A stretch of 64,000 bases of DNA from Alphaproteobacteria bacterium (lineage in GTDB: Bacteria; Pseudomonadota; Alphaproteobacteria; Rickettsiales; JABCZZ01). The stretch spans positions 8,521 to 72,520 of the forward strand of contig JABDCC010000002.1 in assembly GCA_013288335.1 (NCBI GenBank). The letters run 5' to 3'. Below, piece after piece: positions 4,991 to 52,766 of the stretch. The position numbers were made by a program, and so were the translations under genes. The notes below the pieces were generated by a model. It was given only the letters and a program-made list of their open reading frames with translations. It was not told the DNA's origin and did not search any database. The stretch's first letter is position 1. Each line of letters begins with the position of its first letter.

Positions 4991-6346
4991 ATGCTATATT
5001 GCCCTATGCTCGAGCAATTATTATCGGAAATCGCCCAGGTGCCGTCCTACAATCTTGTGGGAAGGGTTTTGTCGATCAAGGGCTTACTGGTGGAATGTTC
5101 CGGCATCGAAAAAGCCTTAAGCGTCGGCGCACGCTGCGAGATTATCGGCCTCATGCCGCATAACGGTGTCATCCCCAAAGTGAATTGCGAAGTGGTAGGT
5201 TTCCGCGAAGACCGCGCACTGCTCATGCCATTTGGCAATTTAGAAGGTATTGGCCTTGGCGCCAAAGTCGCGCTCCTTAGCTCAGAATCGGCTATTTACC
5301 CCGAAGACGCATGGCTTGGGCGCGTCATCAACGCGCTCGGCGAACCGCTTGATGGCAAAGGCCCGCTCCCTCTTGGTGACGTGCCTTATAATCTGCATGG
5401 AAAAGCGCCGGCTGCTCACACGCGGCAACGCGTGCGCGGTAAAATCGATTTGGGAATTCGCGCAATCAACACCTTCCTTACTTGCTGCAAAGGGCAACGC
5501 ATGGGCATTTTCTCTGGGTCCGGCGTCGGCAAATCCATATTGATGTCGATGCTCGGGCGTTACAGCCAGGCCGACGTAAACGTGATCGGCTTGGTCGGTG
5601 AACGCGGACGCGAAGTGCAGGAATTCATTGAAGATGATTTAGGCGAAGAAGGCTTGAAGCGCTCGGTAGTGATTGTCGCCACTTCCAGTGAGTCGGCTTT
5701 GCTTCGCAGACAAGCGGCGTATGTCACTTTATGCGTTTCTGAATATTTCCGCGATCAGGGGAAATCGGTGTTGTGCGTCATGGATTCGGTTACCCGCTTT
5801 GCTATGGCACAACGTGAAATCGGCCTATCTGCTGGTGAGCCACCTACCACCAAAGGCTACACGCCAACCGTATTCTCTGAACTACCACAACTCCTGGAAC
5901 GCGCTGGCCCAGGTAGCGCCGGACAAGGTTCCATCACCGGCATGTTCAGCGTATTGGTAGAAGGCGACGATACCAACGAACCTATCACCGACGCGGTGCG
6001 CGGTATATTAGACGGCCATATTATTTTAGATCGCGCCATTGCCGAGCGCGGAAGATTCCCGGCAATCAACGTTCTGCGCAGCGTGTCGCGCACCATGCCC
6101 GATTGCAACAACGAAAAAGAAAACCAACTGGTAATAGCTGCACGACTGGTAATTTCTACCTATGAAAATATGGCGGAAATGATTAGGCTTGGCGCATATA
6201 GACGCGGAACCGATCCGGATGTGGATCGCGCCATGCAGATTTATCCGGCAATTGAAAAATTCCTCGCCCAACGCAAAGAAGAACAGAGTGAACTTAGCAC
6301 CGGCTACGAGGAACTCGCTAAAATATTAGGTATCCCATGGCCGTGA
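4991..6346 (+). CDS. fliI: flagellum-specific export ATPase FliI
   Basis: 451 aa. Walker A GSGVGKS, Walker [13 protein letters not shown], and F1/T3SS-ATPase-type C-terminus. Followed by fliJ with an overlapping start. Confidence 0.9.
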
Positions 6347-6768
6347 AAACCTTAGATACACTCATCCGGCTTCACAAGCAACGTGTCGATATCATGCGCC
6401 GTGAAATGGTAGCATTTGAAGAAGAACGCAGGCAATTGCTCGCATTTGCCGAAAGGCTAAAACGGGAACATGCTGAGGAAATGCAGCTGATGCTTGCAGA
6501 AGTAAAAGTAGCGAGTTTCTTTGGCTCCTACTCTGCAGGCGTCAAACAAAAATTGTTGAACATTGACGGGGAAGTAAAAAGGCTGGATGCTGCCATTGAA
6601 GAAAAAGCTGAAGCCATCCGCGAAGAATTCAGCGAGCAGAAAAAATATGAGATCACCAGAGAAACCACACTCAAGCGCATAGAACAAAAGGAAAAAAATT
6701 TGTTGCAACAACGTTTTGACGAAATAGGATCGCAGCAATATCATAAGGCCAAGGAAAATCCTTTATGA
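6337..6768 (+). CDS. fliJ: flagellar export chaperone FliJ-like coiled-coil protein
   Basis: 143-aa, highly charged, predicted coiled coil. Its ATG at 6337 overlaps the fliI 3' end (fliI stop TGA at 6344-6346). Position and size match fliJ. Sequence family is weakly conserved, so the call rests mainly on context. Confidence 0.65.
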
Positions 6769-8570
6769 AATGCGCACGTTATTTTATCGGTCTGTTAATT
6801 TTTTCTATTACTTGCAACAGTAACGCAGCATTTGCGAGCGTAAAAAGCCAGTGCCGCGATCAGGCACAAAGCCGCCTCGAATTATACGACAAACCCGATA
6901 CCTATCCGATAAGCGACGAAGAAAAAAATAATGCGCTTCAGGCACTCTATATTGAATGTATGCGCGAGCAGCAGGGAAAAGCCGCAAATGAGACAGATAT
7001 TGACACCCGAAATGCCAAATACCCGCCAGCACATGCCGATGTTGTAGTCAGCAATCCTCCTGCTAATCCCGATCCGAACTCGCCAAATTCCAAAGTAATA
7101 GCCGTTCAGGGTAGCGAGGTTTTGCCCGCCAATGCAGCCAGCGCTCCGGTGGTAAAACACCCGGAAGGAGGGCTATATCAAGGTGCAACCGTTGTATATA
7201 TACAAGGTTCTCCCCCCACTATATTTAACCCTGCCAATCCTAATGCTACCCCACCCGCGAATGGCCAACCGCAAAATGGCGTCAATGCTAATGTAGCTGC
7301 AAATCCAACCACGGCGGCAAACGGACAACCGCAAAATGGGCAAACTCAAAATGGCCAGCCCCAAAATGCTCAGGCGTCTAACAAGCAAGATGCAGATAAG
7401 GCAGCGCAAGCGGCCAAAGCGCAACAACCACCAGTCGTTATCAATAATAACGTTGTGGGGGCGCCGCCTGTAAAAGCTACTGCAGCAGCACCCGCCACAA
7501 CACCACCTGCTTCTAATACTGCCACTGCCGCAGCAACACCGCCCGCTGCAAATGCTGCCGTAAACGCTGCGCAGAAAGCGGCAACTGTTCCGCCAGTAAC
7601 TGTGGCGGCAACTCCGGCTGTCGCCGTTACGCCCCCTGCTGCTACTGTTGCTATACCGCCAGTTTCTAGTCCCACCGCCGCACCCGTAACCCCCACTTCC
7701 GTTGGCAATCTTTCCGCGCCCGCAACCATTCCAAATGCAACTGCCTCAACTCCAGCATCTGCTACACCAACGACGGCATCTTATCGTCCTGCTGCTGTAC
7801 CCGCTAATCCAACATCCTTGTCGGTAGTCAATAACCTGCCAGCTACTGCTCCTGCCGCTAAAGCCGCAACGGTTCCTGCAAACTCAGCGTCACCCGCAAA
7901 TTATGCCGCCGTTGCTTCTCCTTCCGTACCCACTACTCCATTAGGAGTAAATGCCTCCTTGCCTTCCGTTTCTGCAAACCCCGCTTTGCCGCAAGCAAAT
8001 ATTGCTGCACCTATACCAGTACCAGCAGCCTCTGCCTCACTTCCAGCCGGAACCCTGACACCTCCAGTACCGAGCAACAATTCGGTTTCCGTAGTCAATA
8101 ATATACCACGCTCTGCTGCACCGGTTTATCCGACGGCTGCGCCTGCCGCTGCAGTCAAAAATGCACCTTATACTCCGCCCGCTGTGACCACGAATATCAC
8201 TTCACCCACGAATGTTGCTAATCATGTGCCTTCTAATCTTTCTGCAACTGCACCCGCTTCAAATGCAGCTGGGAAAATACCCCCAATCAATACACCACAG
8301 GCGAATATAGTTTCGGGCGCCAAGCCAGCTACTACTGCTAATCCCGCTTCGAAGCACTCTCCTTTGCTTGCGTATAATTCCGATAAAGTGAAACCGAATG
8401 CAAAACCTCTTCATAACGTCACAACTACACATAAAACGGCAAACAATAACGGGGTGAAATCTACAAGTAGCACAAACAAAAGTTCTGCAACTCAACCACC
8501 CGCAGCAACAACTAAAACAACCAGCAGCAAAAGCAATGCTGAGCTAGAACAGATTTTAGGCGGAAATTAG
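6765..8570 (+). CDS. secreted protein: novel 2-Cys N-terminal domain plus ~500-aa Pro/Ala/Thr/Asn-rich low-complexity tail
   Basis: 601 aa with signal peptide (..CNSNAAFA). ATGA overlap with the fliJ stop (6765-6768). The N-domain is homologous to the next ORF. QPQNG repeats are present. Confidence 0.6.
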   Translation: MKCARYFIGLLIFSITCNSNAAFASVKSQCRDQAQSRLELYDKPDTYPISDEEKNNALQALYIECMREQQGKAANETDIDTRNAKYPPAHADVVVSNPPANPDPNSPNSKVIAVQGSEVLPANAASAPVVKHPEGGLYQGATVVYIQGSPPTIFNPANPNATPPANGQPQNGVNANVAANPTTAANGQPQNGQTQNGQPQNAQASNKQDADKAAQAAKAQQPPVVINNNVVGAPPVKATAAAPATTPPASNTATAAATPPAANAAVNAAQKAATVPPVTVAATPAVAVTPPAATVAIPPVSSPTAAPVTPTSVGNLSAPATIPNATASTPASATPTTASYRPAAVPANPTSLSVVNNLPATAPAAKAATVPANSASPANYAAVASPSVPTTPLGVNASLPSVSANPALPQANIAAPIPVPAASASLPAGTLTPPVPSNNSVSVVNNIPRSAAPVYPTAAPAAAVKNAPYTPPAVTTNITSPTNVANHVPSNLSATAPASNAAGKIPPINTPQANIVSGAKPATTANPASKHSPLLAYNSDKVKPNAKPLHNVTTTHKTANNNGVKSTSSTNKSSATQPPAATTKTTSSKSNAELEQILGGN

Positions 8571-8580
8571 GAAATTTATT

Positions 8581-9078
8581 ATGAAAAATATGATTTCAAA
8601 GACAGTTTTCTTAGCATTACTCTTCGTATGCACAAGCTGCAAAGATGAAATGAAAGTGCAGATGGACTATGTATCCAACCGCGATGAATGTCGGGAAAAG
8701 GCCGACGAACAACTGAGTAATTATTCTACTCCGGATTCGTACCAGATAAATGACAAAGAGAAAAAAAGCGCTTCTGATGAAATTTTCTGCGAGTGCATGA
8801 AAGGTCACGACTGGAAAGTGATAGGCTGTCCAAAACCGCCAGTGGTAGCTGCAAAGCCTGCTGTTGTAGTAGCACCTGCAGTGGTTCCTGTGCCAACACA
8901 AAACCAGGCACCTGCCGCCGTTCCCGCACCGGTTCCTGTAGCAGCCCCTGCGCCCACCTCAACTAATAATACTACAGTTCTGGTAGTGCAGCCTACTCCA
9001 CCTGTCGTTGCTCCCACTCCGGTTGCGCCGCCAACAAATGCACCCGCACAATATCAACCCGCATCCCCTAATGAATAA
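8581..9078 (+). CDS. secreted/possible lipoprotein paralog of 6765-8570 with short Pro/Ala/Val-rich tail
   Basis: 165 aa. N-terminal hydrophobic leader ends in ..LLFVCTSC (non-canonical lipobox). Residues about 35-76 align without gaps to the N-domain of the preceding ORF (16/42 identical). Confidence 0.6.
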   Translation: MKNMISKTVFLALLFVCTSCKDEMKVQMDYVSNRDECREKADEQLSNYSTPDSYQINDKEKKSASDEIFCECMKGHDWKVIGCPKPPVVAAKPAVVVAPAVVPVPTQNQAPAAVPAPVPVAAPAPTSTNNTTVLVVQPTPPVVAPTPVAPPTNAPAQYQPASPNE

Positions 9079-9084
9079 TTTTAT

Positions 9085-9405
9085 ATGATTACTATTCTCT
9101 CTCGCCTTTATGAAACCATATTGACCCGTAAAGGCGGCGATCCCACCTCTTCCTACGTGGCAAGTTTATTTGCCAAAGGCAATCTTAAAATCGCACAAAA
9201 AGTTGGCGAAGAAGCAACCGAAACAGTGCTTGCTGCCGCGGGCGGCAATAAGCAGGAAATTATTTCTGAGAGTGCGGATTTATTATTTCACCTGCTGGTG
9301 CTCTGGGCTGAGCATAACATCACACCAGCCGAAATTGCCGCTGAGCTTGAGAAGCGCGAAGGAAAATCGGGAATAGAAGAAAAGGCACAAAGAAATAATC
9401 GATAA
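9085..9405 (+). CDS. hisE: phosphoribosyl-ATP pyrophosphatase
   Basis: 106 aa. Typical HisE helices are present (YVASLFAKGNLKIAQKVGEEATETVLAA, ESADLLFHLLVLW). Confidence 0.85.
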   Translation: MITILSRLYETILTRKGGDPTSSYVASLFAKGNLKIAQKVGEEATETVLAAAGGNKQEIISESADLLFHLLVLWAEHNITPAEIAAELEKREGKSGIEEKAQRNNR

Positions 9406-9421: not shown

Positions 9422-9551
9422 TTTCAATGCGTGACAGCTATATTGCCCTGGTTTGCAAATAATTTCCTGATTGATTGACAGGCTTCTTTATTTGGAATAG
9501 AACCCAATATTAGAAATGGTTAATTTGTGTTAAGATGTGCAAGGATTTTCG

Positions 9552-9875
9552 ATGAGTTCGGAAAATAGTTTTTTAAAGAGATTTGATTTACCCAGCAAAC
9601 TCAAGAGTAAAATCGCGGTGGAATCGCCAGTCATTAATATGATGAACGATCCGTCATATCTGCGTCAGTCATCTGCTTTAATCAATGAAGCTTTGCAGAA
9701 GGGTTTTGATGTTTTGCAACTCCCTAACGGTGATATCGTAACCACCGGCACGAAAACCGTAGTGCATCAATATAGCTGGGATCTGGATAAAGCAAAACTG
9801 GTAAAAACCAAAGCCGATCCGAAAAAGCTAAAAGACGCTATCGTATTAGAAGAATCCGACTTCGAAGAAGCGTAG
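9552..9875 (+). CDS. hypothetical protein
   Basis: The track ORF starts at GTG 9537. The first ATG is 9552 (MSSENSFLKRF..). About 107 aa, acidic C-terminus, no family recognised. Confidence 0.5.
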   Translation: MSSENSFLKRFDLPSKLKSKIAVESPVINMMNDPSYLRQSSALINEALQKGFDVLQLPNGDIVTTGTKTVVHQYSWDLDKAKLVKTKADPKKLKDAIVLEESDFEEA

Positions 9876-9929
9876 AATTTTCTATCTGCCCGCGTGACAA
9901 AGCAATCGGTTTATGTTCAATATACCGGT

Positions 9930-11114
9930 ATGATACGTTTCATTATTTGTTTAGCAATATTCCTTCTGCCCATAACTCTTTATGCGCAATCAAACAGCAA
10001 TGTGCATGCGCAATTATCCGGCACACTCAGCGAAATTGACAGCGAAAACAATACACAGAAAAAGATCCATCAGCAAAACGCCAAGCTGGAACGCGAGCTT
10101 AAAATATTACAAAAAGAAATGGTGTCACTCGCCAAGGATATGAGCGATGAAGAACAGGCATTATCGGATCTGGAAGAAAAATTTGCTATTCTTGAAACTC
10201 AGAAAAAAGAAAAAACAGATGCATTAAATGCGCGTCAGGCGGAATTATCCACGATGATCTCTGCCATGATACGCCTGCGCCAATTGCCGCCCGGTGCAGT
10301 CATTGCAATGCCTGGAAAGCTTGATGAAACGCTTGCAACGGCACGCGCGCTGAACATCGTTACGACTACTATAGAAGAAGATGCGGAGAGCCTTCGTGGG
10401 CAATTACATGAGCTCTCTGAACTAGAAGAGCAAATCCGCAAAAACCGCGAAACTATCCTTGCAAAGAAATCTGCGCTTGAAACGCGACAGAAAAAACTCT
10501 CCGTGCAATTAAAAGAGCGTGAGAAATTGCAGGCAGAACTCAGCACCAAGGAGCAAAAAGAAAAAGAGCGACTTGCAAACCTTACTTCCAAATCGCGTAC
10601 ATTGCAGGATTTAATTGATTCGCTCGAGAAATCGATTGAGTCGCATGTGCAACCGAGTGAGCCGGAAAATATAACCGCTAATGCCATCAGTAAAAACGAA
10701 AGAGGCAGTTCAAAACATAAACTGCGCTCGTTTGAAAATGCCAAAGGCAAAATTCGCCTACCCGTCGCTGGAAAAATTATCCGCCATTATGGAAGTAGCG
10801 GAACAGCGGATAATACCGCGTCACGCGGAATCACAATAAACGCACGCGAAAATGCAACCGTGGTAGCGCCCTTCGACGGCGAAGTGGTGTATGCAGGACC
10901 ATTCCGCGATTATGGGCATATGGTCATCATTCGTCACAGCGACGATTACCACACGATGTTATCCGGCATGGAAACCGTAAATTGCAAACCCGGGCAATAT
11001 TTGCTTGAGGGCGAGCCTATCGGCACTATGGGTGAGGGTGACGACGCGCGGCATCTTTACATGGAACTGCGCAAAAGCAGCAAACCCATCGACCCGTCGG
11101 ATTGGCTGAGGTAG
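9930..11114 (+). CDS. M23-family metallopeptidase with N-terminal coiled coil (EnvC-like murein hydrolase activator)
   Basis: The ATG at 9930 gives signal peptide MIRFIICLAIFLLPITLYA. A long Q/E/K-rich coiled coil follows. The C-terminal LytM/M23 domain shows (GITINARENATVVAPFDGEVVYAG..GHMVIIRHSDDYHTMLSG). Confidence 0.8.
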   Translation: MIRFIICLAIFLLPITLYAQSNSNVHAQLSGTLSEIDSENNTQKKIHQQNAKLERELKILQKEMVSLAKDMSDEEQALSDLEEKFAILETQKKEKTDALNARQAELSTMISAMIRLRQLPPGAVIAMPGKLDETLATARALNIVTTTIEEDAESLRGQLHELSELEEQIRKNRETILAKKSALETRQKKLSVQLKEREKLQAELSTKEQKEKERLANLTSKSRTLQDLIDSLEKSIESHVQPSEPENITANAISKNERGSSKHKLRSFENAKGKIRLPVAGKIIRHYGSSGTADNTASRGITINARENATVVAPFDGEVVYAGPFRDYGHMVIIRHSDDYHTMLSGMETVNCKPGQYLLEGEPIGTMGEGDDARHLYMELRKSSKPIDPSDWLR

Positions 11115-11254: not shown

Positions 11255-11623
11255 ATGGGTACGAGCGGTGAATTTTCAGGCGGCAATGTAAAGATAAAAG
11301 AAGAAACCTTTCATTATATACGCACCCTTCCCCTTCACATAAAAGAAGCCGGTGTTGATTATACGCTCGGAAAAAATGGATTTAAAAAATTTACGCCAGG
11401 AGATGCCGCATTTGATACTTCTAATGCAGGTTATTATATAGAGCCAGTGAAAAACTCTGAGGCAATACAGGTAAAATTTAATGAGAACGGCCTTTCTAAA
11501 TTAATTTCTTTGGGATGGGTAAATAGTAATCTTTTGTCATATTTTGCTACAAAACCTAGCCCAGTAATGCAAAGTCCGGCTGATGAAAAACTTCGCAAAA
11601 GAATTGAACAAGTCAAAAGTTAG
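11255..11623 (+). CDS. hypothetical protein
   Basis: 122-aa ORF with an AGGAGAG Shine-Dalgarno upstream. No family recognised. Confidence 0.5.
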   Translation: MGTSGEFSGGNVKIKEETFHYIRTLPLHIKEAGVDYTLGKNGFKKFTPGDAAFDTSNAGYYIEPVKNSEAIQVKFNENGLSKLISLGWVNSNLLSYFATKPSPVMQSPADEKLRKRIEQVKS

Positions 11624-13309: not shown

Positions 13310-13546
13310 CGTCTTATGCGTCCCGTCGCAGAATGCGCCGTTCTTGCTCTGCTTGCACCCACAAAAATAGGCGTCTTTAGTGGATTCCGCAGTAAAAACT
13401 ACCGGAGCAAATGCGCTGCCTTTGTGTGAACCATCGCAAAATGGTTGCGTGGAGCTCATTCCGCATGCGCACCAGGCATATTTCTTGCCTTCCTCAATCC
13501 CAATTTTGTAAGGCGATTTCTGTGCAATTTTTGGCATGTCGGTCAT
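13301..13546 (-). CDS. CDGSH iron-sulfur domain protein (two CDGSH motifs)
   Basis: 81 aa with CACGMSSTQPFCDGSH and CGCKQSKNGAFCDGTH. The 3' end overlaps the aceB 3' end by 9 nt (convergent). Confidence 0.85.
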   Translation of the reverse strand: MTDMPKIAQKSPYKIGIEEGKKYAWCACGMSSTQPFCDGSHKGSAFAPVVFTAESTKDAYFCGCKQSKNGAFCDGTHKTLV

Positions 13547-13616
13547 ATCAAATTCTCCTTATTTAAAATCATTCTAGGTGTTGCACGAATCAGGTCAAGC
13601 AGGATATATCCATAGC

Positions 13617-14582
13617 ATGGCTGTTTACACACAATTATCCGAAGTCGAAATAAAGCAATTTCTTGCGCTTTATGATCTGCCGCCTTTGCAGGAGGCGGAG
13701 GGCATTCTCTCGGGTGTTGAGAATACCAATTATCTCATCACCCTTGAAGATGGCAGTAGGTTTATCCTGACTTTATTTGAACGACGCATGGCAGAAGAGG
13801 AATTGCCTTTCTTTGCAGAGCTTATGGAGCATCTCGCTCTCAAAGGATTTCCCTCCCCCAAACCGTTACATGCAAAAAATGCTAAAATTATTCAACGCAT
13901 AAAAGATAAACCTGCGATTATGGTTTCTTTTTTATTCGGCAAAAGCACCACCAACATTCAGCCCGAACATATGAGCGAGCTTGGTGCTGCTATGGCCAAT
14001 ATGCATTTAAAAAACGCAAATTTTAAATACAGTAGAAAAAACTCGCTCTCCGTGGATGGCTGGAAAAATATTCTCAATAAAATTTCTAACCAGGCCGATG
14101 AAATAGCCCCGGGACTTGCGAATGAACTTCAAAATGAAATGAAAATGATTTCTGATGCATGGCCGAAGAATCTGCCAAGTGGTGTCATTCACGCAGATAT
14201 TTTCCCCGATAATGTGTTTTATGATTCGCATGACAAGCTCACCGGCATCATCGATTTTTATTTCGCCTGCAATGATTTTTATGTCTATGAACTCGCCATT
14301 TGCCTGAATTCCTGGTGCTTTGAAAAGAATTTGGAGTTTAACATCACTAAGGCAAAATTGATGCTCAGGGCTTATAATGAAGTGCGCCCATTATCAGATG
14401 CAGAACTTCACGCACTTCCCATACTCGCACGTGGCGCGGCACTGCGTTTTCTTTTGACGCGCGCGCATGACTGGTTGTTTCAGGTAGAAGGCGCCATCGT
14501 AAAACCCAAAGACCCGATAGAATATTTGAAAAAATTGCGTTTCCACCGCAGCGTAAAACACCATAAGGAATATGGGCTGTAA
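13617..14582 (+). CDS. thrB: homoserine kinase (aminoglycoside-phosphotransferase-fold ThrB type)
   Basis: Family start [21 protein letters not shown] at ATG 13617 (track ORF begins at GTG 13578). Kinase motif [13 protein letters not shown] is present. thrB-rnhA adjacency is common in alphaproteobacteria. Confidence 0.85.
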
Positions 14583-15028
14583 TGACTAATCCCTTAAAAG
14601 TAATCATATATACCGATGGCGCATGCTCGGGGAATCCGGGGCCGGGTGGCTGGGGCGCGGTACTTGTTTGTAATGGTCGCGAAAAAGAAATATTTGGCGG
14701 GGAACCAGATACTACTAACAATCGCATGGAACTGATGGCCGCGATAAAGGCACTTGAAGCGCTTAAAAGCAAATGTGAAGTGGATTTATACACCGACAGT
14801 AATTACGTGCGGAACGGCATTATGACGTGGATTCACGACTGGAAAAAGCGCGGCTGGAAAACCGCCGATAAAAAACCTGTGAAAAACGTCGATTTATGGC
14901 AAGAACTGGATGAAATGGCGGCCAAACACCAGATAAAATGGCACTGGGTAAAAGGCCATAACGGCGATTCGATGAATGAACGCGCCGATGAATTGGCAAG
15001 ACGCGGGATAACTACACTTTTAAAATAG
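14582..15028 (+). CDS. rnhA: ribonuclease HI
   Basis: 148 aa with [31 protein letters not shown] and [17 protein letters not shown] motifs. The start overlaps the thrB stop (TAATG). Confidence 0.9.
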
Positions 15029-15260
15029 CATCGAGCACTAATTGCTCAAAACCAGGAATGGGAGACCCATTGCCATGGGCCACCACGACGCCGAATTTTG
15101 CCAGATCAATATTACCCTTTTTAGTGGCATCCAGAAAACGCTTCTGGTTGTTTTTCTTAAGTAGCACATAAGCAAATAAAGGATTATCGAGTTCATCGAT
15201 ACCTTCCACTAGTTCAAGCACACATTGCTTTTCCTGAAGTATTTTGTCGAGGTTGCTCAT
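15012..15260 (-). CDS. hypothetical small protein, translationally coupled to the upstream beta-CA-like gene
   Basis: 82-aa ORF. Its ATG (15260) lies 1 nt after the stop of the 15262-16179 gene. The 3' end overlaps rnhA by 17 nt. No family recognised. Confidence 0.4.
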
Positions 15261-15261
15261 G

Positions 15262-16179
15262 TCATACTCCTTTCATCTGTGTGAGATTATTAAGCGCATT
15301 GGCGATAGCGTGATCAAGTTCTTCCATCATCGGTTCAGCAATGTTTATCACTTTATTCACTTTTTTCATAACGAGCGAACCAGCAGGTTTTACTGCAAGC
15401 GCTTGCCTTTTATTTAATTGCTTATAATCCTCGATAATACGAGCAGAAGTCGACATACCATTGCTTACTGGATAGAGCTCTTTCTCAAGTTGTTCGATAG
15501 GCACGAAATCATTTGCCTTGGGATCAAACACTTCAAGCGGTGATTTTCCATTGTCCACAGGCAGGCCGCGTATGGCCGCAGGTATCCACCATGTCCCCTC
15601 GTTCACCAGATCAGACACTTTCTTATCACCTAACTCGTAATCATAAAAATTGCGCAATGATTGCAATATAATCGCTTTTTCCACCATTTTGCGTATCTCA
15701 TACATGGAGGCATTACCAGCGTAGGCCTGTTTTAACGCATCTTTGAAATCGTGCGATACTACGGAGTCAAAGAAATCATACACGTCTTTAAAACGCGCTG
15801 GATTATCTTTATGTGGATCACCTGGAAACAGCACATGGTTGCAATAGGCTTCAACCGCCTTGCAATCTTCATGGCCGGTGATACTCATGCCTTCCACCGT
15901 CGGCATTGTGGTAAGTAATACAACCGATGCTTTAAAATCTCTGTCAGCGGCTTCACTACGAGGAAGAGCACCCGCCAGGTGGCGCAAAGGATAAATTTCA
16001 CCGTTTTTTGTTCCTTTATAATCATGCATTTCATCAAAGCGCGCATCCATGCAATAGAGCGCACCTATTTTACGCCGCACTTCTTTTGGCATCGTCTCGC
16101 GGAAATTGCCCTCAAGAATATTGAGTGTCTTAATTAGCCATTCCTGGCGTGGTATGAATTTATCTAATTTATCAACCAT
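15262..16179 (-). CDS. beta-carbonic-anhydrase-like protein (divergent) with ~90-aa C-terminal extension
   Basis: The track ORF starts at TTG 16191. The first ATG is 16179 (MVDKLDKF..). It carries C43-M-D45-A-R47, GEIYPLRHLAG and G-H103-E-D-C106, matching the beta-CA pattern CxDxR...(F)VxRNxGN...HxxC with near-canonical spacing. Confidence 0.5.
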   Translation of the reverse strand: MVDKLDKFIPRQEWLIKTLNILEGNFRETMPKEVRRKIGALYCMDARFDEMHDYKGTKNGEIYPLRHLAGALPRSEAADRDFKASVVLLTTMPTVEGMSITGHEDCKAVEAYCNHVLFPGDPHKDNPARFKDVYDFFDSVVSHDFKDALKQAYAGNASMYEIRKMVEKAIILQSLRNFYDYELGDKKVSDLVNEGTWWIPAAIRGLPVDNGKSPLEVFDPKANDFVPIEQLEKELYPVSNGMSTSARIIEDYKQLNKRQALAVKPAGSLVMKKVNKVINIAEPMMEELDHAIANALNNLTQMKGV

Positions 16180-16306
16180 AATTATCTGCAAATTAAGTAT
16201 TTAATAACCTGATTATGCCAAATATTCCTAAAGATTTGGTTAATATTGCTTTTATTTGTGCAGTTCTCTATAAACATGACCTAAATTCTTATATTCAAGG
16301 CATAAA

Positions 16307-17590
16307 ATGGATAAAATACGCATACGCGGCGGTCATGCGCTCAAAGGAATTATACCGATAAGCGGCGCAAAAAACGCAGCATTACCGTTAATGTCGGCTG
16401 CACTTTTGACCGAAGGAGAACTCAAGCTCTCCAATATCCCTTATCTGGCTGACGTCATCACCATGGCAAATCTGCTCGTGCAGCACGGCACCACTTTGCA
16501 TATGGATGAAAAATCCGCGAGCGCCACAGGCTTTGGCCGCACCATTGGCTTAAAAGCCGCCAATATCACTAATTTTACTGCGCCATATGATCTAGTGCGC
16601 ACCATGCGTGCCTCCGTGCTCGTGCTTGGCCCACTGCTTGCGCGTTTTGGTCAGGCGAAAGTGTCACTGCCTGGAGGCTGTGCCATCGGCACGCGCCCTA
16701 TTGATTTGCATCTAAAAGCCCTGGAACAAATGGGTGCGTTGATTGAACTTGCCGACGGCTATATCAATGCGTTTGTAAAAGGCAAATTAAAAGGTGCGGA
16801 TATTACTTTTGATACTGTGACCGTGACAGGCACCGAAAATGTCATGATGGCAGCAACGCTTGCCGAAGGTGAAACTACCTTGCGCAATGCAGCGCGTGAG
16901 CCAGAAGTAACTGATCTTGCAAATTGCCTTGTAAAAATGGGCGCCAACATTCAGGGAATTGGCAGCGGCACACTTATCATTCAAGGCACAAAAGCGTTGC
17001 ATGGTGCAGAACATAGCGTGATTGCCGACCGCATCGAGGCAGGCACTTATGCAGCAGCGGCTGCTATTACCGGCGGCGACGTGGAGTTGCAAGGCGTTAG
17101 CATGCAGATACTCGGAGCAGTTGCAGAAAAATTCGCCGAAGCTGGAATTGACATAAAACCCACCGCAAAAGGTGTGCGGGTGACGCGTAACAATGGCTTA
17201 AATGGCGTGGATGTGATGACGCAGCCCTACCCTGGCTTCCCCACCGATATGCAGGCACAAATGATGGCGCTTATGACAGTCGCAAAAGGCGCGTCCATGA
17301 TTACGGAAACTATTTTTGAAAACCGTTTCATGCATGTGCCGGAACTCACCCGCATGGGCGCAAAAATTAACGTGCATGGCTCCTCTGCCATGATACGTGG
17401 CGCAAAACAATTGACTGGTGCCGAGGTGATGGCAACAGACCTGCGCGCCTCCGTCTCATTGGTAATCGCAGCGCTGGCAGCGAAAGGTGATACCATCATC
17501 AACCGGGTGTATCATTTAGATCGCGGCTATGAACGCTTGGAAGAAAAACTCTCTGCGTGCGGCGCAGAAATCGAGCGGATAAAATCATGA
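16307..17590 (+). CDS. murA: UDP-N-acetylglucosamine 1-carboxyvinyltransferase
   Basis: 427 aa. [29 protein letters not shown] at the N-terminus, active-site loop [15 protein letters not shown], and full-length conservation. Confidence 0.95.
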
Positions 17591-20014: not shown

Positions 20015-20548
20015 ATGAAATACTTTCCGAGATATATTTTTATAACGTTGGCAATGGTTGTATGGTTATATATACCTGCAAGTTTCGCAGATCCTGGTAT
20101 TGCTTCTCAAGCAACGGATGCGAATATTAAACTGCTTGAATTACTCAGAGAACATGGTGATGAAGTTAAACTAAAAGAGGCCCGTGAACGTATTTGCCCA
20201 CATGATTTTACCGCACAAGAAATTGATGGTATAGCGCCTTATGAAGATAGAAATCGCCAGACCTTATGTGAACTCTGTGATGAGTCCATTAAATATCAAA
20301 AAACTTTTGTTCGTCACAAAGCACAATATCTGAAAAATGTATCCCTAAAAGTAAAGAGTTGTCTGTGCATACAGGCATATCAGGATGATATGGATCCAAT
20401 AGAAATGAAAAGTTTCCCACCAAAAATCAAAACCGGAAAATCTGAATGTGAATTACTTAAATATCATGTGGGATGCAATGCGTTTATAGATGATGTGAGT
20501 CCCACCCATATTTTCTGCCCATTGGAATGTGTGGATTTTAGTAAATAA
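20015..20548 (+). CDS. hypothetical secreted cysteine-rich protein
   Basis: 177 aa. N-terminal hydrophobic leader ends in ..PASFA. Ten Cys in the mature part. No family recognised. Confidence 0.5.
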   Translation: MKYFPRYIFITLAMVVWLYIPASFADPGIASQATDANIKLLELLREHGDEVKLKEARERICPHDFTAQEIDGIAPYEDRNRQTLCELCDESIKYQKTFVRHKAQYLKNVSLKVKSCLCIQAYQDDMDPIEMKSFPPKIKTGKSECELLKYHVGCNAFIDDVSPTHIFCPLECVDFSK

Positions 20549-22797: not shown

Positions 22798-24519
22798 ATG
22801 AGCAAGAGAATTATGAAAAGCTTCACCACGGTAAAAGCAAAACTCCGCATCGTTTTTGCCTTATTCTTTGCAATGATTTGTGCTCTTGCGCTTTATGGCA
22901 ATAACAATCTAAAAGAACTTAAAGACGATATAAATCATATCAGTGTGGATATAACCCCGCAGTTGCGGCTGCTTCAGGATATTGACGGTGATGTTGTACA
23001 GTTCAGGGTAGAAGAAGCTTCACATGTCCTTTCTACCGACTCTCAGACAAAAGATACACATGAAGCTCAAATGAAGAAATATGCAGCTGAAATAGACGAC
23101 TGGATAAAGAAATTTTTAAATAGCGATATTTCCAGTAAGGAAAAAAAGCATGTAAACGAATTTATTGATGTCTGGAATCAGTACCTTACGATAAACAAAC
23201 AATTGCTACCTGTTTCGCGCCAGTATGATTCTCCCGCGCATGCAGAATTTTTAGCTCAAGCGGCTGAATTGTTTAATAAACAAGGTGAGTCTGTCTATCT
23301 CAAATCAGACAAGTTATTGAATGCATTGGTTGATGGCATGTCAGAAGAAAGTGATGCCGCCTCCGATGATGCCAACAACTTTGTAGGAATTTCAATACGC
23401 AATGGCACGATAGCTATGGGAATAGCAGCGATAATCAGCATCCTGATGGTGGTTATGTTTGAGCGCACGGTGTTGCGTTACCTCATTCGGATAACATTGA
23501 GTATGAAAAGATTATCGGGAGGAGACAACACCGTTGTCATTGAAGGCACGAAACGCTCCGACGAAATTGGTGAAATGGCAAAATCGCTGGAAGTATTTAA
23601 AGAAAACGCCTTGCAAAAAGAACGTATGGAGCAAGAACAAAAGCAGATGGAAATAAACGCGGAAATAGAAAAGAAGACTATGATGCACAAATTGGCCGGA
23701 GATTTTGAGTCCGGGATACAGGGTATAATTACCACTGTATCTTCCGCCGCAACTGAGCTATATCAGACTGCTGAGGATATGCAAAAAACCGTCGCTAATG
23801 TAAGCACGCAATCAGGAACGGCCGCTGCAGCATCCGAGCAAACTTCCGGCAATGTGCAGAGCGTATCAGCAGCTGTAGAAGAAATGTCTGCCTCGGTCAG
23901 GGAAATAGCCAGCCAGATTTCCAAATCTACGGTGTTGGTGAATGCAACCGTAAAACAAACCGAGCAGGCAGATAAAACCACGCAGGCGCTTTCCGATGCC
24001 GTTGTACAAATTAGCGGTATTCTCGATTTGATCCAGAATATTGCCGGGCAGATCAATCTGCTTGCCCTTAACGCGACAATCGAATCAGCGCGCGCTGGCG
24101 ATGCCGGCAAAGGATTTGCGGTGGTCGCCTCGGAAGTTAAAAACCTGGCAGGACAAACCACCAAAGCTACAGAGGAAATTGCCAAACAGATAGGAAACGT
24201 ACAACATGCAGCGCAAGAAGTAGTGGGGGTATTGAGTGCAATCAACGATGCTATTGGTAATGTTAACCAATACTCATCCGGCATTGCTTCGGCGGTAGAG
24301 GAACAGGCGACTGCCACACAGGAAATCGCAAGCAACATGCAACACGCTTCTCAAGGCGTGCAAAACATCACCAGTAATATTTCCGAAATCACTAAAGGCG
24401 CATCGAATGCTAATCATGCGGCAAACGAAGTTCTAAGCGCATCGCAGATGCTTTCACAACAGTCTGAAATGCTGAACCAACAGGTTAAATTATTTCTGGA
24501 CGGGGTAAGAGCTGCGTAA
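22798..24519 (+). CDS. methyl-accepting chemotaxis protein
   Basis: 573 aa with two TM segments flanking a ~170-aa periplasmic helical domain and a HAMP domain. The highly conserved MCP signalling hairpin is present (IAGQINLLALNATIESARAGDAGKGFAVVASEVKNLA). Confidence 0.9.
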   Translation: MSKRIMKSFTTVKAKLRIVFALFFAMICALALYGNNNLKELKDDINHISVDITPQLRLLQDIDGDVVQFRVEEASHVLSTDSQTKDTHEAQMKKYAAEIDDWIKKFLNSDISSKEKKHVNEFIDVWNQYLTINKQLLPVSRQYDSPAHAEFLAQAAELFNKQGESVYLKSDKLLNALVDGMSEESDAASDDANNFVGISIRNGTIAMGIAAIISILMVVMFERTVLRYLIRITLSMKRLSGGDNTVVIEGTKRSDEIGEMAKSLEVFKENALQKERMEQEQKQMEINAEIEKKTMMHKLAGDFESGIQGIITTVSSAATELYQTAEDMQKTVANVSTQSGTAAAASEQTSGNVQSVSAAVEEMSASVREIASQISKSTVLVNATVKQTEQADKTTQALSDAVVQISGILDLIQNIAGQINLLALNATIESARAGDAGKGFAVVASEVKNLAGQTTKATEEIAKQIGNVQHAAQEVVGVLSAINDAIGNVNQYSSGIASAVEEQATATQEIASNMQHASQGVQNITSNISEITKGASNANHAANEVLSASQMLSQQSEMLNQQVKLFLDGVRAA

Positions 24520-28005: not shown

Positions 28006-28680
28006 ATGAACGATAGTTTTCAGTACGGCGATATCATCTTTTTAGGGCTTATTGCAATATTTGTAGCATTTCGCCTGCGCTCCATGCTTGGGCGCAATAT
28101 GGGAATCGATCCGCGCGACATCTGGAAAAATGCCACCAGAGGTAACATAGCTCCGGTAAACGGACAGCCACAACCAAGCATCATCGTCAAAAAACCTTCC
28201 GAAGAAGAAGTGGTTCCGATGGAGCTTCAGAATAACCAACCCGTATCCGATGGCTTGCAGGCAATACGCAAGGCCGACCCCAGTTTCAGCACCACCGAGT
28301 TTATTGCCGGCGCAAAACTTGCCTTCGAATGGATAGTGGAGGCCTTTTCAAAAGGTGATAAGGAAAAACTACGCGCGCTGCTTTCGCCAGAACGATTCCA
28401 GCATTTTTCCGAAGAAATAGACGCGAACGCTGCAAGCGGTACTAAACGTGAGACTACCCTTATTTCTATCCTTGCGACGGATATTACCGATGCAGCCATG
28501 CAGGGTAAGGTGGCCCATATCACCATACAATTTACCAGCGAACAAATGAGTATCATGCGCGACAAAGATAAAAATATAGTGAGCGGCTCACCCTCTAACG
28601 TCGAAAAAGCAATCGATGTTTGGACGTTTGAACGCGATACATCCTCGCGTGATCCAAACTGGAAAATCATAGCAACATAG
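28006..28680 (+). CDS. Tim44-like domain protein
   Basis: 224 aa with an N-terminal TM helix and a C-terminal Tim44-like domain (FIAGAKLAFEWIVEAFSKGD.., WTFERD...DPNWKI). Divergent from secB, as in many alphaproteobacteria. Confidence 0.8.
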   Translation: MNDSFQYGDIIFLGLIAIFVAFRLRSMLGRNMGIDPRDIWKNATRGNIAPVNGQPQPSIIVKKPSEEEVVPMELQNNQPVSDGLQAIRKADPSFSTTEFIAGAKLAFEWIVEAFSKGDKEKLRALLSPERFQHFSEEIDANAASGTKRETTLISILATDITDAAMQGKVAHITIQFTSEQMSIMRDKDKNIVSGSPSNVEKAIDVWTFERDTSSRDPNWKIIAT

Positions 28681-28701: not shown

Positions 28702-29808
28702 ATGCTGCGTAAACTGATTATATTACTTGCCCTTTCTCTGATAGCCGCCGCCTGCACGGAAGCACCTCCGGGCCCCGATAAGTTATCGCTCAAACCCATA
28801 GCATTTAAAAAAATAATTGGCTGGGATAGTGATAATCACGCCGAAGCCCTTGCCACCTTTATGAAATCCTGTGGTGCATTTGCGCTCATGAGAGACACAG
28901 ATGCGGTGGGTCAGGGTGAAATGCTTGCGCCAGTAAGTGTCTGGAAAAATGTATGCCGCAGGGCAAAAATCGTCCCAAGCGGTGATAGTGCGCTCGCCAA
29001 AGATTTCTTTGAGGAATCCTTCATCGCCATGAAAATCACCGGTAATGGCAAAAACCACAGCGGGCTTCTTACCGGATATTATGAACCACTCTTAAATGGC
29101 TCACGCACACAAGCGCGCCCTTATGTGTACCCTATATACACATTACCCGACCCAAAGGATGCTTCATATACGCGCGCGCAAATTGACCTCGGTATTTTAA
29201 AAGGTCAGGTTCCGGTAATCGCATATGTTGATGATCCGGTGCAGCTATTCTTCATGCATATTCAGGGCTCCGGCAGCATACAGCTTCCAAGCGGTGAAAT
29301 CATCCATGTGGGCTATGCCGGTACCAATAACCAGCCTTACGTTGCGATTGGCAAAGTGCTCTCCGATGCAAAACTCTTAGATAAAAAAGACATCACCATG
29401 CCGGTGCTTCGCCAATGGTTGTATGATCACCCCAACGACATGTGGCATGTGATGTGGGCGAATCCTTCTTATATATTTTTCCAGGAAATGAATGGCGGGC
29501 CGTTTGGTGCCGAAAAAGTAGCGCTTACTCCTGGGCGTTCGCTCGCGGTAGATTCAAGCTTCATTCCGCTCGGTATGCCGGTGTTTATTGATACGCTTTT
29601 GCCGGAAACTCCGGAAGCGCCCGTCACTATCCAGCGCAAACTGATGATCGCACAGGATACCGGAAGAGCCATACGCGGGCTTAAGCGCGGCGATATTTTC
29701 TTTGGCTCAGGCTACGCTGCCGAAGAGCTTGCCGGACGCATGAAATCCGGCGGCGATATGGTACTGCTCGTACCGCGCGCACTCGCACGTAAAATCAAGA
29801 CGGATTAA
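28702..29808 (+). CDS. mltA: murein transglycosylase A
   Basis: 368 aa with a lipoprotein-type leader (LIAAAC). MltA-specific and 3D-domain motifs are present (LLTGYYEP, FFMHIQGSG, AVDSSFIPLGMPVFIDT, AQDTGRAIRG..RGDIFFG). Confidence 0.85.
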   Translation: MLRKLIILLALSLIAAACTEAPPGPDKLSLKPIAFKKIIGWDSDNHAEALATFMKSCGAFALMRDTDAVGQGEMLAPVSVWKNVCRRAKIVPSGDSALAKDFFEESFIAMKITGNGKNHSGLLTGYYEPLLNGSRTQARPYVYPIYTLPDPKDASYTRAQIDLGILKGQVPVIAYVDDPVQLFFMHIQGSGSIQLPSGEIIHVGYAGTNNQPYVAIGKVLSDAKLLDKKDITMPVLRQWLYDHPNDMWHVMWANPSYIFFQEMNGGPFGAEKVALTPGRSLAVDSSFIPLGMPVFIDTLLPETPEAPVTIQRKLMIAQDTGRAIRGLKRGDIFFGSGYAAEELAGRMKSGGDMVLLVPRALARKIKTD

Positions 29809-29951: not shown

Positions 29952-29990
29952 TTAATGATAGGGAGTTTAATTAAGTATAGCAAAATTCAA

Positions 29991-31799
29991 ATGACTTCTG
30001 ATATTTCAAACATTCTCAACATCGTCCCTGCCCCAGCGCCCGCTCCGTCACCATCGCAGAGCGCGCCGCAGGCAGATGCGACGACTAATCAGAATAATTC
30101 CGCTTCCTCTGACTCTACACAGAACACTGCAAGTCAATCTGCAAATAGCCAATCCGCAAATCAGAATTCAAACTCAGCTTCTAATCAGGCTTCAAACCAA
30201 ACCGGACAGACTCAGGCAAATAATTCTGCAAATCAATCGAGCAATACTAATAATAATGGTAGCTCTCATTTCAGTAAATTGCTGGATAGCACTAATAGTA
30301 ATAATACACAGAAATCAAATGCGACTTCTTCGACTTCATCTGCCGCAACTTCTGCAAATGCAAAATCGGTAAATACTCAAAAATCAGACACAAAATCAGA
30401 TAATGCCGCTGCAACCGATGCTACCAATAACATCGCGGCGGTAGTGTTGCTAGCGCAGACACAAACACTTACCAATACAACGCAAAGCACCAACCCTACT
30501 CAGACGACTTCATCCGCAAATAGCCAGCCTGCTACGGCATTATCGGCGCAGGACATAAATATATTAAATCAGCTGCAGCAAATCCTGCAGGAACTTTTAC
30601 AGAAGGCAACCGCTTCCGCGCAAACCGCTACAACTTCTACTGCTGCTACAACAGCCGCAGCAGGTAGCGATGGCAACACCGATTCTACTGCGAAATCTTC
30701 TTCGGGCGATACAAACTCAAAGGATGCGCTTTTATCGCAAGCACTCGCACAATTAACCGCCATCTTGCAGCAGTTAAGCCCACAAACCAATGCAGCCGCC
30801 ACAACAAATACGGCCACGGATGCAAATGCTATAGGCTCAGTGACAGATGGCTCCTCTTCAGGCGCTTCTGCGCTTGCTGACGTGCTTGCCAAACTCTCTC
30901 AGCTGCTTGAAACTAAAATAGATGCAACTAATACTTCTGCAACCGACGCTGCTGCCGCCACTACTGCAAATACCACGAATACAAACAGCAAATTCGATGC
31001 TATTTTAAACAACCTTTTGCAGTCGGTTAAAAATGACGCATCTGCTGCGCAGACACCGCAAACCAATTCCGGTCAAGCCAACTCAGGTCAGACTAATTCC
31101 GGCAATCAGCAATCAGCGGCCAATACAAATAACGCAAACAATATCCCGCTGCCCAATATCACGAATAATGCAGCTACTTCTTTGCAGGCTACATTTGAAA
31201 AAATTCTGGCAATCATCACCCCGGGACAAAATCCTCTGCCAGGTTCAAAGAATTCTACTGATAACAATACTACTAATGCAGCGAACAGCACTAATGCCAC
31301 CCAAGCTAACTTTGGCATAGCTGCTAACCAGCAGGCTCAGGGTAGCCCATTTGTGAAACTCTTAAATACCGCCGCTGCACCGCAGACACCGGTTTCCGAT
31401 CAAGTGCTCGTGCAGATAAAAACGGCGCTGAACAGTAATGCCAACCAGATACGCGTGCAACTTGACCCGGAAAATCTCGGCAAGGTAGATGTGCGCATGG
31501 TAACGGGCACGGATGGCAAAACCGGCGTTACGGTGACTGCCGATAACCGCCAGACGCTTTCCATGCTGCAAAATGAAGCCAAATCGCTGGAATCGGCGCT
31601 GCGCAATCTGGGCATTAAAACTGATTCGGGTAGCCTCAGCTTTAACCTTAGACAACAGCAGGATGGGCGTAATTCCGGCCAGCCCCAAGGCGGCTATACC
31701 CATGTGGCGCAAACCACTGCTCCAGACGATCTGGAAGTTGGCACGACAATTGCTTCATATCATGTAACGACGAAACAAGGTTTAGACATAAGAGTTTAA
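29991..31799 (+). CDS. fliK: flagellar hook-length control protein FliK
   Basis: The C-terminal Flg_hook-type domain is present (QIRVQLDPENLGKVDVRMV..GVTVTADNRQTLSMLQNEAKSLESALRNLGI). The N-terminal ~480 aa are Q/N/S/T/A low complexity. The track start 29955 would lie upstream of the predicted sigma54 TSS, so ATG 29991 (MTSDISNIL) is preferred. The start is uncertain. Confidence 0.75.
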   Translation: MTSDISNILNIVPAPAPAPSPSQSAPQADATTNQNNSASSDSTQNTASQSANSQSANQNSNSASNQASNQTGQTQANNSANQSSNTNNNGSSHFSKLLDSTNSNNTQKSNATSSTSSAATSANAKSVNTQKSDTKSDNAAATDATNNIAAVVLLAQTQTLTNTTQSTNPTQTTSSANSQPATALSAQDINILNQLQQILQELLQKATASAQTATTSTAATTAAAGSDGNTDSTAKSSSGDTNSKDALLSQALAQLTAILQQLSPQTNAAATTNTATDANAIGSVTDGSSSGASALADVLAKLSQLLETKIDATNTSATDAAAATTANTTNTNSKFDAILNNLLQSVKNDASAAQTPQTNSGQANSGQTNSGNQQSAANTNNANNIPLPNITNNAATSLQATFEKILAIITPGQNPLPGSKNSTDNNTTNAANSTNATQANFGIAANQQAQGSPFVKLLNTAAAPQTPVSDQVLVQIKTALNSNANQIRVQLDPENLGKVDVRMVTGTDGKTGVTVTADNRQTLSMLQNEAKSLESALRNLGIKTDSGSLSFNLRQQQDGRNSGQPQGGYTHVAQTTAPDDLEVGTTIASYHVTTKQGLDIRV

Positions 31800-31817
31800 A
31801 TAATAGGAGTGAGTTTT

Positions 31818-32537
31818 ATGGGTTTATTATCAGGTATCGCAGGTTCAACGGCAGCAGCAACAAGCAGCACCGGCACCGCAGCACCAAGTCTTGCTGGTGA
31901 TTTTAACACTTTTCTTACCCTGCTTACTACTCAGCTTCAGAATCAGGACCCGACCAGCCCTGTAGATTCGAACCAATTTACCCAGCAGCTGGTAGAATTT
32001 GCCGGGGTACAGCAACAGGTGCAGAGCAATACGTTGCTCCAGCAGCTAGTGACTAACTCACAGGCGAGCCAGGTAAGCTCAGCATCTTCATTCATCGGCA
32101 CCAATATTACCGCAACCGGCAATTCCGGCGCACTGACCAATGGTAAAGCGACATTCGGCTATACACTTCCAAGCGCTGCCACTGCGGCAAATGTTACTAT
32201 AAGCGACAGCAACGGTAATATCGTGTTTGAAGGCACCGGCAGCACTAACGCCGGCAATAATCCGGTTTCTTGGGATGGCACAAACAGCTTCACCGGCGCA
32301 ACTGAGCCAGACGGCGTGTACACCATAGCAGTGAAAGCAGTTGGCTCCGCAGGTAATGCCATTACAGCAACTCCTTACGTCACTGGCACGGTGGATTCTG
32401 CTTCTATCAGCAACGGATCGGTCGTTCTAAATATCGGCTCACTTAGCATACCAGAAGCCAATGTAACCAGCGTGACCAATCTCCCGGGCACACAGACTAC
32501 CAGCGTACCTCCAACAACAACGACACCAACGAGTTAA
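31818..32537 (+). CDS. flgD: flagellar hook assembly/capping protein FlgD
   Basis: ATG 31818 lies 8 nt after AGGAG. The FlgD N-domain motif DFNTFLTLLTTQLQNQDPTSPVDSNQFTQQLVEFAGVQQ and a FlgD Ig-like middle part are present. Confidence 0.85.
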   Translation: MGLLSGIAGSTAAATSSTGTAAPSLAGDFNTFLTLLTTQLQNQDPTSPVDSNQFTQQLVEFAGVQQQVQSNTLLQQLVTNSQASQVSSASSFIGTNITATGNSGALTNGKATFGYTLPSAATAANVTISDSNGNIVFEGTGSTNAGNNPVSWDGTNSFTGATEPDGVYTIAVKAVGSAGNAITATPYVTGTVDSASISNGSVVLNIGSLSIPEANVTSVTNLPGTQTTSVPPTTTTPTS

Positions 32538-50959: not shown

Positions 50960-52447
<1,488 letters not shown>

Positions 52448-52766
52448 ATGATCCAAGCTTTAGTCTAAACTAACTATTGCTAGTTAGTCCTCAAATAAAG
52501 CGAATTGATTGTTCGCACGCTGTCACATTATCCTCGCCATCACAGCTAAAGGATAATTGCGACCACAAAAATAAATAAAATTAATTATTCAAAAATTACA
52601 TGGTTGATAACTTGATAAATCAAGTCATCTCGCACAAATAACAGCGTAACGGAAAATTCCGACACGCCATCACCTGCGCTTAAATGCTCTATTCACTTTG
52701 TAAAACATCAGGTTATCAGCCGTTTTTCAGGCAATAACACTTCCACCGCCAATCGCGGGGAGGCAA

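Follow-up and report, generated by a model that had tools for sequence, protein, structure and literature searches.

The differences between the flagellar motors of bacterial lineages lie mainly in additional periplasmic components, several of which came to light only when structures were determined. Among the lineage-specific additions to the basal body are periplasmic proteins and lipoproteins such as FlgP, FlgT and FlgO or PflA and PflB, known from the extra rings of Vibrio and Campylobacter. FlhE, a Sec-exported periplasmic protein which is folded, beta-rich, not a lipoprotein and without Ala/Pro tail, is encoded by the last gene of the enterobacterial flhBAE export operon. In the cell envelope at large, LpoB and Lpp combine an N-terminal lipid anchor with an extended or disordered region that spans the periplasm. 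The gene of YecR, a lipoprotein of the Salmonella L-ring, is located elsewhere than behind fliJ. YecR itself went unrecognised as belonging to the flagellum until it was seen by cryo-electron microscopy, with one copy per FlgH (bioRxiv 10.1101/2020.12.05.413195). Here, we analyse a stretch of 64,000 nucleotides (hereafter the window; positions 8,521 to 72,520 of contig JABDCC010000002.1, assembly GCA_013288335.1) from an alphaproteobacterium assigned to the Rickettsiales (JABCZZ01), in which two consecutive open reading frames, ORF3 and ORF4, follow fliI and fliJ. As judged from their sequences, they belong to a new, undescribed family of fliJ-coupled 2-Cys hairpin lipoproteins for which neither Pfam nor NCBIfam has a model. 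The family is confined to one clade of uncultured Alphaproteobacteria, the relatives being labelled 'Rickettsiales' or 'Alphaproteobacteria' metagenome-assembled genomes (MAGs). Our favoured reading, to which we give an even chance, is that ORF3 and ORF4 are lineage-specific periplasmic flagellar accessory proteins.

Compared with these systems, the locus is familiar in its logic and unfamiliar in its proteins. The proposed role recalls YecR, a small lipoprotein of narrow lineage distribution under the control of the flagellar regulon; however, similarity to YecR was detected neither in sequence nor in fold, and YecR is a single folded domain without disordered tail. The operon logic of flhBAE matches that of fliI-fliJ-X, where X stands for a family member, yet ORF3 and ORF4 give no match to the FlhE family of Pfam. 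Homology to FlgP, FlgT, FlgO, PflA or PflB was not detected either, these being folded ring-formers whereas the family is mostly disordered. With respect to LpoB and Lpp, the order of the parts is reversed, with the folded head adjoining the anchor and the tail at the far end; homology to them was not found, and the domain binding penicillin-binding proteins (PBPs) is absent from the family.

A family of paralogous proteins encoded behind fliJ

According to the list of open reading frames and the raw sequence, fliI, a fliJ-like gene, ORF3 and ORF4 are consecutive on the + strand, to which all their coordinates refer. The first gene of the unit, fliI (4991-6346), encodes the flagellar export ATPase (636.7 bits against TIGR03498 FliI_clade3, whose cut-off is 587; Pfam ATP-synt_ab and T3SS_ATPase_C). 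Its end is overlapped by the start of the fliJ-like gene (6337-6768), which encodes a 143-amino acid coiled-coil protein matching the FliJ models weakly (TIGR02473, E 0.036). Orthologues of this gene at three other loci (L081, L091 and L096) match PF02050 FliJ, and phmmer relates the window protein to the FliJ orthologues of other loci with E-values of 1e-14 to 1e-54. By these matches of its orthologues and by its position directly after fliI, the gene is clearly orthologous to fliJ. The ATG of ORF3 (6765) overlaps the TGA of fliJ (6766-6768) in the junction cctttATGAaatgc, so that the ATGA overlap proposed in the initial annotation is present in the raw sequence, and exactly 10 nt separate the stop of ORF3 (6765-8570, 601 amino acids) from the ATG of ORF4 (8581-9078, 165 amino acids), as had also been described. 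Ribosome-binding sites of the AGGA type precede both genes, and no terminator-like hairpins were found on the + strand between fliJ, ORF3 and ORF4. Long antisense open reading frames overlap ORF3 and ORF4 (7370-7729 on the - strand and others across 6800-9020); most likely, these frames are a side effect of the Ala/Pro codon composition and not genes.

Regarding the relationship of the two proteins, the initial annotation had aligned a 42-residue segment of each. Both segments exist, and 16 of the 42 residues are identical, including both Cys and the PDxY, DxEK and ECM motifs. Over their N-terminal ~100 residues, ORF3 and ORF4 match each other by BLASTP with E 2e-13, and a profile built from the two heads (51 columns), run exhaustively with HMMER against 1.84 billion proteins, retrieved 65 representative clusters at E <= 1e-3, 27 of them at E <= 1e-10. 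All 65 representatives match the profile in a stretch that immediately follows a hydrophobic leader at the N-terminus. Taken together, the BLASTP match and the retrieved family imply that the similarity is homology and not chance, and ORF3 and ORF4 are thus true paralogs. Both combine a signal or lipobox, a C-x34-C…ECM head and an Ala/Pro-rich tail, ORF3 being a 'long-type' member with a ~530-residue tail rich in Ala, Pro, Asn and Thr and ORF4, which is identical to the representative P0001, a 'short-type' member and probable lipoprotein. Where source names are given, family members are called 'hypothetical protein'. Among 20 clusters that were looked up, 19 consist of one member only; the family is thus rare and known from metagenomes and MAGs only.

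The head had been reported as unrecognised, and so it is: Pfam and NCBIfam scans of ORF3 and ORF4 returned nothing at E <= 1, a Pfam scan of 10 diverse family members gave zero matches, and the family profile found only chance matches, none significant, among PDB sequences. A word-indexed protein search retrieved no protein with the two-head alignment and three with a 60-sequence alignment, FliJ as query against genome contigs retrieved no relatives, and a search of contigs for an exact match to the ORF4 protein recorded none. Literature searches on the motifs and on fliJ-linked lipoproteins yielded nothing relevant.

The N-terminus of ORF3 has the features of an export signal, with a basic n-region, a hydrophobic core and an A-F-A|S site resembling that of signal peptidase I (residues 1-24, 6765-6836). 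It also holds a lipobox-like motif, SIT-C17, which is non-canonical with an atypical position -1. In the closest relatives of ORF3 (P0069 and P0018), AFA or AYA sites likewise accompany a degenerate lipobox, while the other long-type members have canonical ones. The signal peptide of ORF4 (8581-8640) ends in VCTS-C20, whose position -3 is atypical; homologues have at the aligned position a canonical lipobox Cys followed by K/T-D-I. With a relaxed regular expression based on the consensus [LVI][ASTVI][GAS]-C at the end of the signal peptide, a lipobox was called in 56 of 67 members, most being classical (LAGC, LAAC, LSAC and similar). The proteins had initially been described as secreted; most members (56/67) are predicted lipoproteins and not simply secreted. 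Family members would accordingly be periplasmic and mostly lipidated, and ORF3 may be a soluble periplasmic derivative in its sub-lineage.

The head itself aligns with few gaps and contains two invariant Cys, the second followed by a near-invariant Met (…ECM). It covers residues ~27-70 in ORF3 (6843-6974), where family alignment places the invariant Cys30 and Cys65 and the loop motif YDKPDTYPIS, and residues 27-86 in ORF4 (8659-8838), where Cys37 and Cys72 are the family-invariant pair and Cys70 and Cys83 a pair of the short type. Two invariant Cys are thus indeed common to the family, but the ORF4-type head has four conserved ones, C70 and C83 being the extra pair ('FCECM...GCPKP'). An AlphaFold2 model of the head based on a 58-sequence alignment has helices at residues 2-22 and 32-56, with a predicted local distance difference test score (pLDDT) of 78, and a model of mature ORF4 based on 15 short-type homologues has helices at residues 4-29 and 39-56, with a pLDDT of ~79-96 over the first 60 residues. 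The head is predicted, at a pLDDT of 78-90, to be an antiparallel two-helix hairpin of ~55 residues, which begins at most ~15 residues after the signal or lipobox and carries one invariant Cys per helix. The invariant pair would form a disulfide bond. When the head model was compared with PDB by Foldseek, no significant match was obtained (best E 1.8), and structure thus gives no functional clue. The top non-significant neighbours are other Cys-stapled hairpins, among them the cytochrome bc1 hinge protein and TIM9/TIM10, which, like CHCH proteins, resemble the predicted head in being two-helix hairpins with Cys on each helix. All these matches have E > 1, the cellular contexts are unrelated, and the twin CX9C or CX3C motifs of CHCH proteins and small Tims do not occur in the family, which has a single C-x34-C pair and, in the short type, one extra pair.

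The tails had been presented as low-complexity regions. They are Ala/Pro-rich and disordered, but they also contain conserved short motifs. Their composition is as initially described (A 20%, P 14%, N 10% and T 10% in ORF3; P 14.5%, V 13% and A 12% in ORF4), and so are the QPQNG-type repeats of ORF3, encoded by a tandem repeat at 7327-7368 (+; period 15 bp, 2.7 copies according to Tandem Repeats Finder). In the model of mature ORF4, the Pro/Ala/Val tail is disordered with a pLDDT of 49-68. A TVVVVQ-like hydrophobic strand motif (T-V-V-V-V-Q-A/S-P) is found in 45 of the 65 representatives, including both window proteins: TVVYIQ at residues 142-147 of ORF3 (7188-7205), aligned with P0069 and P0018, and TVLVVQ at residues 132-137 of ORF4 (8974-8991), inside the disordered tail. 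Twenty-nine of the 65 members have an L-S-P-A-A-G tail motif, and 44 out of 67 members have an L-E-x-I-L-like motif among their last 14 residues, including ORF3, whose LEQIL (residues 594-598, 8544-8558) ends four residues from the terminus and aligns with its counterparts in the long-type proteins. The idea that the strand motif docks on the protein's own head found no support, the full-length mature ORF4 monomer model leaving the tail disordered and undocked.

In many long-type tails (P0017, P0008, P0021; L084 2512-3279), a '...QL(S/A)xLSP(A/S)AGG ... (A/S)TVVV(I/V)(G/Q)' module is present in 2-3 copies, and this LSPAAG/TVVV module begins with a stretch similar to the C-terminal QLExIL motif. 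The tails of the ORF3 sub-lineage repeat V-V-N-N-(L/I)-P instead (residues 354 and 443 of ORF3). In total length, family members range from 92 to 1114 amino acids, with tails of about 30 to over 1000 residues.

Linkage to fliJ and distribution of the family

To assess gene order in relatives, 19 other distinct loci were available: four FliI-baited loci from GTDB genomes, four head-motif loci from metagenomes and 11 loci obtained by look-up of exact proteins. The FliI-baited genome scan had returned 80 loci, with a best match of 74% identity and without the genome of the window itself among them, and the head-motif metagenome scan, which used a subset alignment, six loci of which four were real. 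A family member lies directly after fliJ in 15 of the 19 loci (L002, L003, L006, L081, L083-L086, L090, L091, L093-L096 and L098), usually with an overlap of 4 or 8 bp, and in 12 of 15 when the FliI-baited loci are left out. The linkage of homologues to fliJ, which the initial annotation had named as a point to verify, thus holds in most of these loci. A long-then-short tandem as in the window occurs in eight of the 19 loci (L083-L086, L089, L094, L095 and L097). Several loci lie within che-ctrA-fliI-fliJ-X or fliX/flgI/flgJ neighbourhoods. In L090 and L091, the fliJ-X pair comes after miaA with fliI not nearby; its preservation without adjacent fliI argues that the coupling is to fliJ itself. 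At these two loci (L090 4442-7002 and L091 5573-9345), fliJ overlaps a member of 710 or 1114 amino acids, respectively, and lolA is convergent downstream.

By contrast with this clade, no family member was found within 8 kb of about 74 other alphaproteobacterial fliI loci, though fliJ is present there; these belong to Rhodospirillales, Hyphomicrobiales, Sphingomonadales and others. Within the clade, a member stands elsewhere than after fliJ in four of the 19 loci, L004, L089, L092 and L097. The last three, seen as contig stretches of 10-16 kb, have the lowest GC content (38-43%) and hold the closest relatives of ORF3. L089 and L097 show the long-short-hisE order of the window with unrelated genes upstream, and L092 has the long gene alone. 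In L097, rpoB is split into several open reading frames (13474-16513) on a contig labelled '6x', probably through frameshift errors of long reads and not by pseudogenisation, and the gene calls of L097 need caution.

In a neighbour-joining tree of the heads, the first-position (long) genes form one clade, and the second-position (short, 4-Cys) genes group with single-copy genes, ORF4 being next to the single-copy type. The tree hence suggests that the single gene of the ancestor has its orthologue in ORF4, which would represent the original type, and that ORF3 stems from an old duplication, has diverged and was inserted between fliJ and ORF4.

As for the genes further downstream, hisE (9085-9405, +), encoding phosphoribosyl-ATP diphosphatase (NF001613, 134.5 bits), starts 6 nt after ORF4 in the window. 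No terminator-like site was found between the two, and hisE, which is outside the 2-Cys family, may be co-transcribed with ORF4. A hisE gene likewise follows the long-short pair by a few nt in L089 (9929-10246) and L097 (8951-9262), and a PTPS/QueD-like gene takes this place elsewhere. A pair of HvfC_N and MbnB_TglH_ChrH (DUF692) genes is found a few kb downstream of fliJ-X in L096 (7885-9894), L084 (5154-6942) and L086 (10902-12514), and in L096 a BufA1 bufferin-like gene lies alongside this pair.

Proposed flagellar accessory role and rival explanations

In the favoured flagellar role, ORF3 and ORF4 would be made together with FliI and FliJ in early flagellar assembly and exported by Sec. 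The head would be stapled by its disulfide and held at the membrane surface by the lipid anchor, although ORF3 of this sub-lineage may instead be set free into the periplasm in soluble form. Short motifs in the extended tail would then be offered to periplasmic flagellar parts, whether of the ring, of the stator or associated with peptidoglycan, and beta-strand addition is one way in which they might bind. The proteins would thereby act as a basal-body accessory, tether or assembly factor, analogous but not homologous to YecR, FlgP/FlgT and FlhE. The organism is flagellated, as implied by the window genes for a methyl-accepting chemotaxis protein (22798-24519), a canonical FliK (29955-31799, +; 614 amino acids, PF02120), FlgD (31809-32537, +; 242 amino acids) and an unusually long hook protein FlgE of 958 amino acids (32598-35474, +). 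A more specific proposal, which we put forward tentatively, is that of a hitherto unseen structural or assembly component of the motor, in which a lipid-anchored, disulfide-stapled hairpin has a disordered Ala/Pro tail docking strand and helix motifs on periplasmic ring or stator proteins, and which was retained, and thus possibly re-used in the envelope, by the lower-GC relatives whose fliIJ no longer lies alongside.

Several points weigh against a flagellar role. Lipidation and the head disulfide are both inferences, the latter from the invariant Cys pair, and the lipobox of ORF3 itself is non-canonical. The head model is a generic hairpin without significant structural neighbour, and the conserved strand motif is left undocked from the head in the monomer model. 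The spread in tail length runs contrary to a role tuned to periplasmic width: the initial picture of an envelope-anchored head on a spacer fits the lipobox, the hairpin model and the disordered tail, but its 'periplasm-spanning' part, if meant as a length-tuned role, becomes doubtful. As to gene order, the member of L004 is found on the opposite strand, at a distance of 4 kb upstream from fliI; it adjoins the same corA/PTPS/PNPOx neighbours seen at other loci, and the arrangement looks like a local rearrangement. In L089, L092 and L097, where fliI and fliJ are absent upstream, the long gene occurs by itself or as part of the pair; if these genomes lack flagella, the function would be independent of the flagellum. 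The initial annotation had held that a head assigned to a known non-flagellar family, or homologues mainly in non-flagellated genomes or never linked to fliIJ, would speak against its reading; nothing of the kind was encountered outright, these three loci touching the question of linkage in part.

Among the rival explanations, the main one, which we regard as possible but rather doubtful, is that the proteins are general cell-envelope lipoproteins which, like LpoB or Lpp, serve for instance as a membrane-anchored tether or regulator and extend across the periplasm by their disordered Ala/Pro linker, the position after fliJ being a historical accident kept by translational coupling. A lipid anchor combined with a disordered linker and short motifs is typical of envelope regulators, the genes persist in L089, L092 and L097 without upstream fliI/fliJ, housekeeping genes take the downstream place (hisE in the window, L089 and L097, PTPS/QueD elsewhere), and L089 and L092 have a class A PBP gene at a distance of 1-3 kb. 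However, an accident of history sits poorly with a fliJ stop/start overlap which is kept across lineages with distant FliJ (E about 1e-14 to that of the window) and which survives the rearrangements removing fliI in L090 and L091. Moreover, the family is found only in the fliJ-linked clade, at none of the ~74 other alphaproteobacterial fliI loci, and has no PBP or peptidoglycan-binding domain. The growth of long-type members up to 1114 amino acids, with repeated V-x-N-N-x-P motifs, would also suit surface or host-facing lipoproteins, adhesin- or mucin-like and rich in Ala, Pro, Thr and Asn, of a symbiont-like lineage and unrelated to motility; the Rickettsiales-like hints of the window (DUF2671 and a 16S gene without following 23S) and the retention of the genes in lower-GC relatives agree with such an origin. 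We consider it improbable nonetheless: nothing points to surface export, short-type and single-copy members are short-tailed, such a role would not account for the conserved coupling to fliJ, and many carriers have the full che/flagellar neighbourhoods typical of free-living motile cells.

Two further explanations concern the identity or the reality of the genes. By its position, its Pro-rich low-complexity composition and its variable length, ORF3 could be taken for a divergent FliK-like hook-length ruler, fliK, which encodes a Pro/Gln-rich protein of variable length, being classically located after fliJ, as in enterobacteria. FliK, however, is exported by the type III system and carries a Flg_hook domain at its C-terminus, whereas ORF3 has a Sec-type signal or lipobox in place of a type III signal and no Flg_hook, and the canonical fliK is present elsewhere in the window; this identity was rejected as very improbable. 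That ORF3 and ORF4 might be artefacts of GC/AT-skewed low-complexity DNA, as several long antisense reading frames over the region could suggest, has a next to negligible probability. Such a reading is refuted by the conservation, across dozens of homologues and in one frame over 601 amino acids, of both the head and the motif at the extreme C-terminus; in addition, the GC content at third codon positions is 0.37, well below the overall GC of 0.51, as in the coding genes after fliJ, and the gene order is syntenic in relatives.

Surroundings in the window and significance

Beyond hisE, the window encodes a DUF2671 protein (9537-9875, +; E 1.3e-18), followed by a gene for a coiled-coil M23 peptidase (9894-11114); we take DUF2671 to be a family largely limited to Rickettsiales. 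A complete 16S ribosomal RNA gene lies at 50960-52448 (-), with a gene for a thiamine pyrophosphate enzyme about 700 bp downstream, and no 23S or 5S gene was found across the 64 kb; Rickettsiales-like genomes typically have their 16S gene unlinked in this way. Upstream of the fliK cluster are genes for a Tim44-like protein (28006-28680) and an MltA-type lytic transglycosylase (28702-29808). Four open reading frames of 119-177 amino acids (1187-1546, 1630-2076, 11255-11623 and 20015-20548) have no Pfam match.

A clade-specific flagellar accessory lipoprotein would be of a known kind; what is new is the family and its architecture of a head followed by a motif-bearing tail. It constitutes a sequence-defined candidate motor part in a poorly studied uncultured clade, with translational coupling to fliJ as its signature. 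The family could receive its own Pfam or NCBIfam model, and its short motifs can be tested for binding partners. Should its function prove independent of the flagellum, it would still represent a new conserved architecture of envelope lipoproteins. Finally, the family may help to follow the retention and loss of flagella in Rickettsiales-like lineages.

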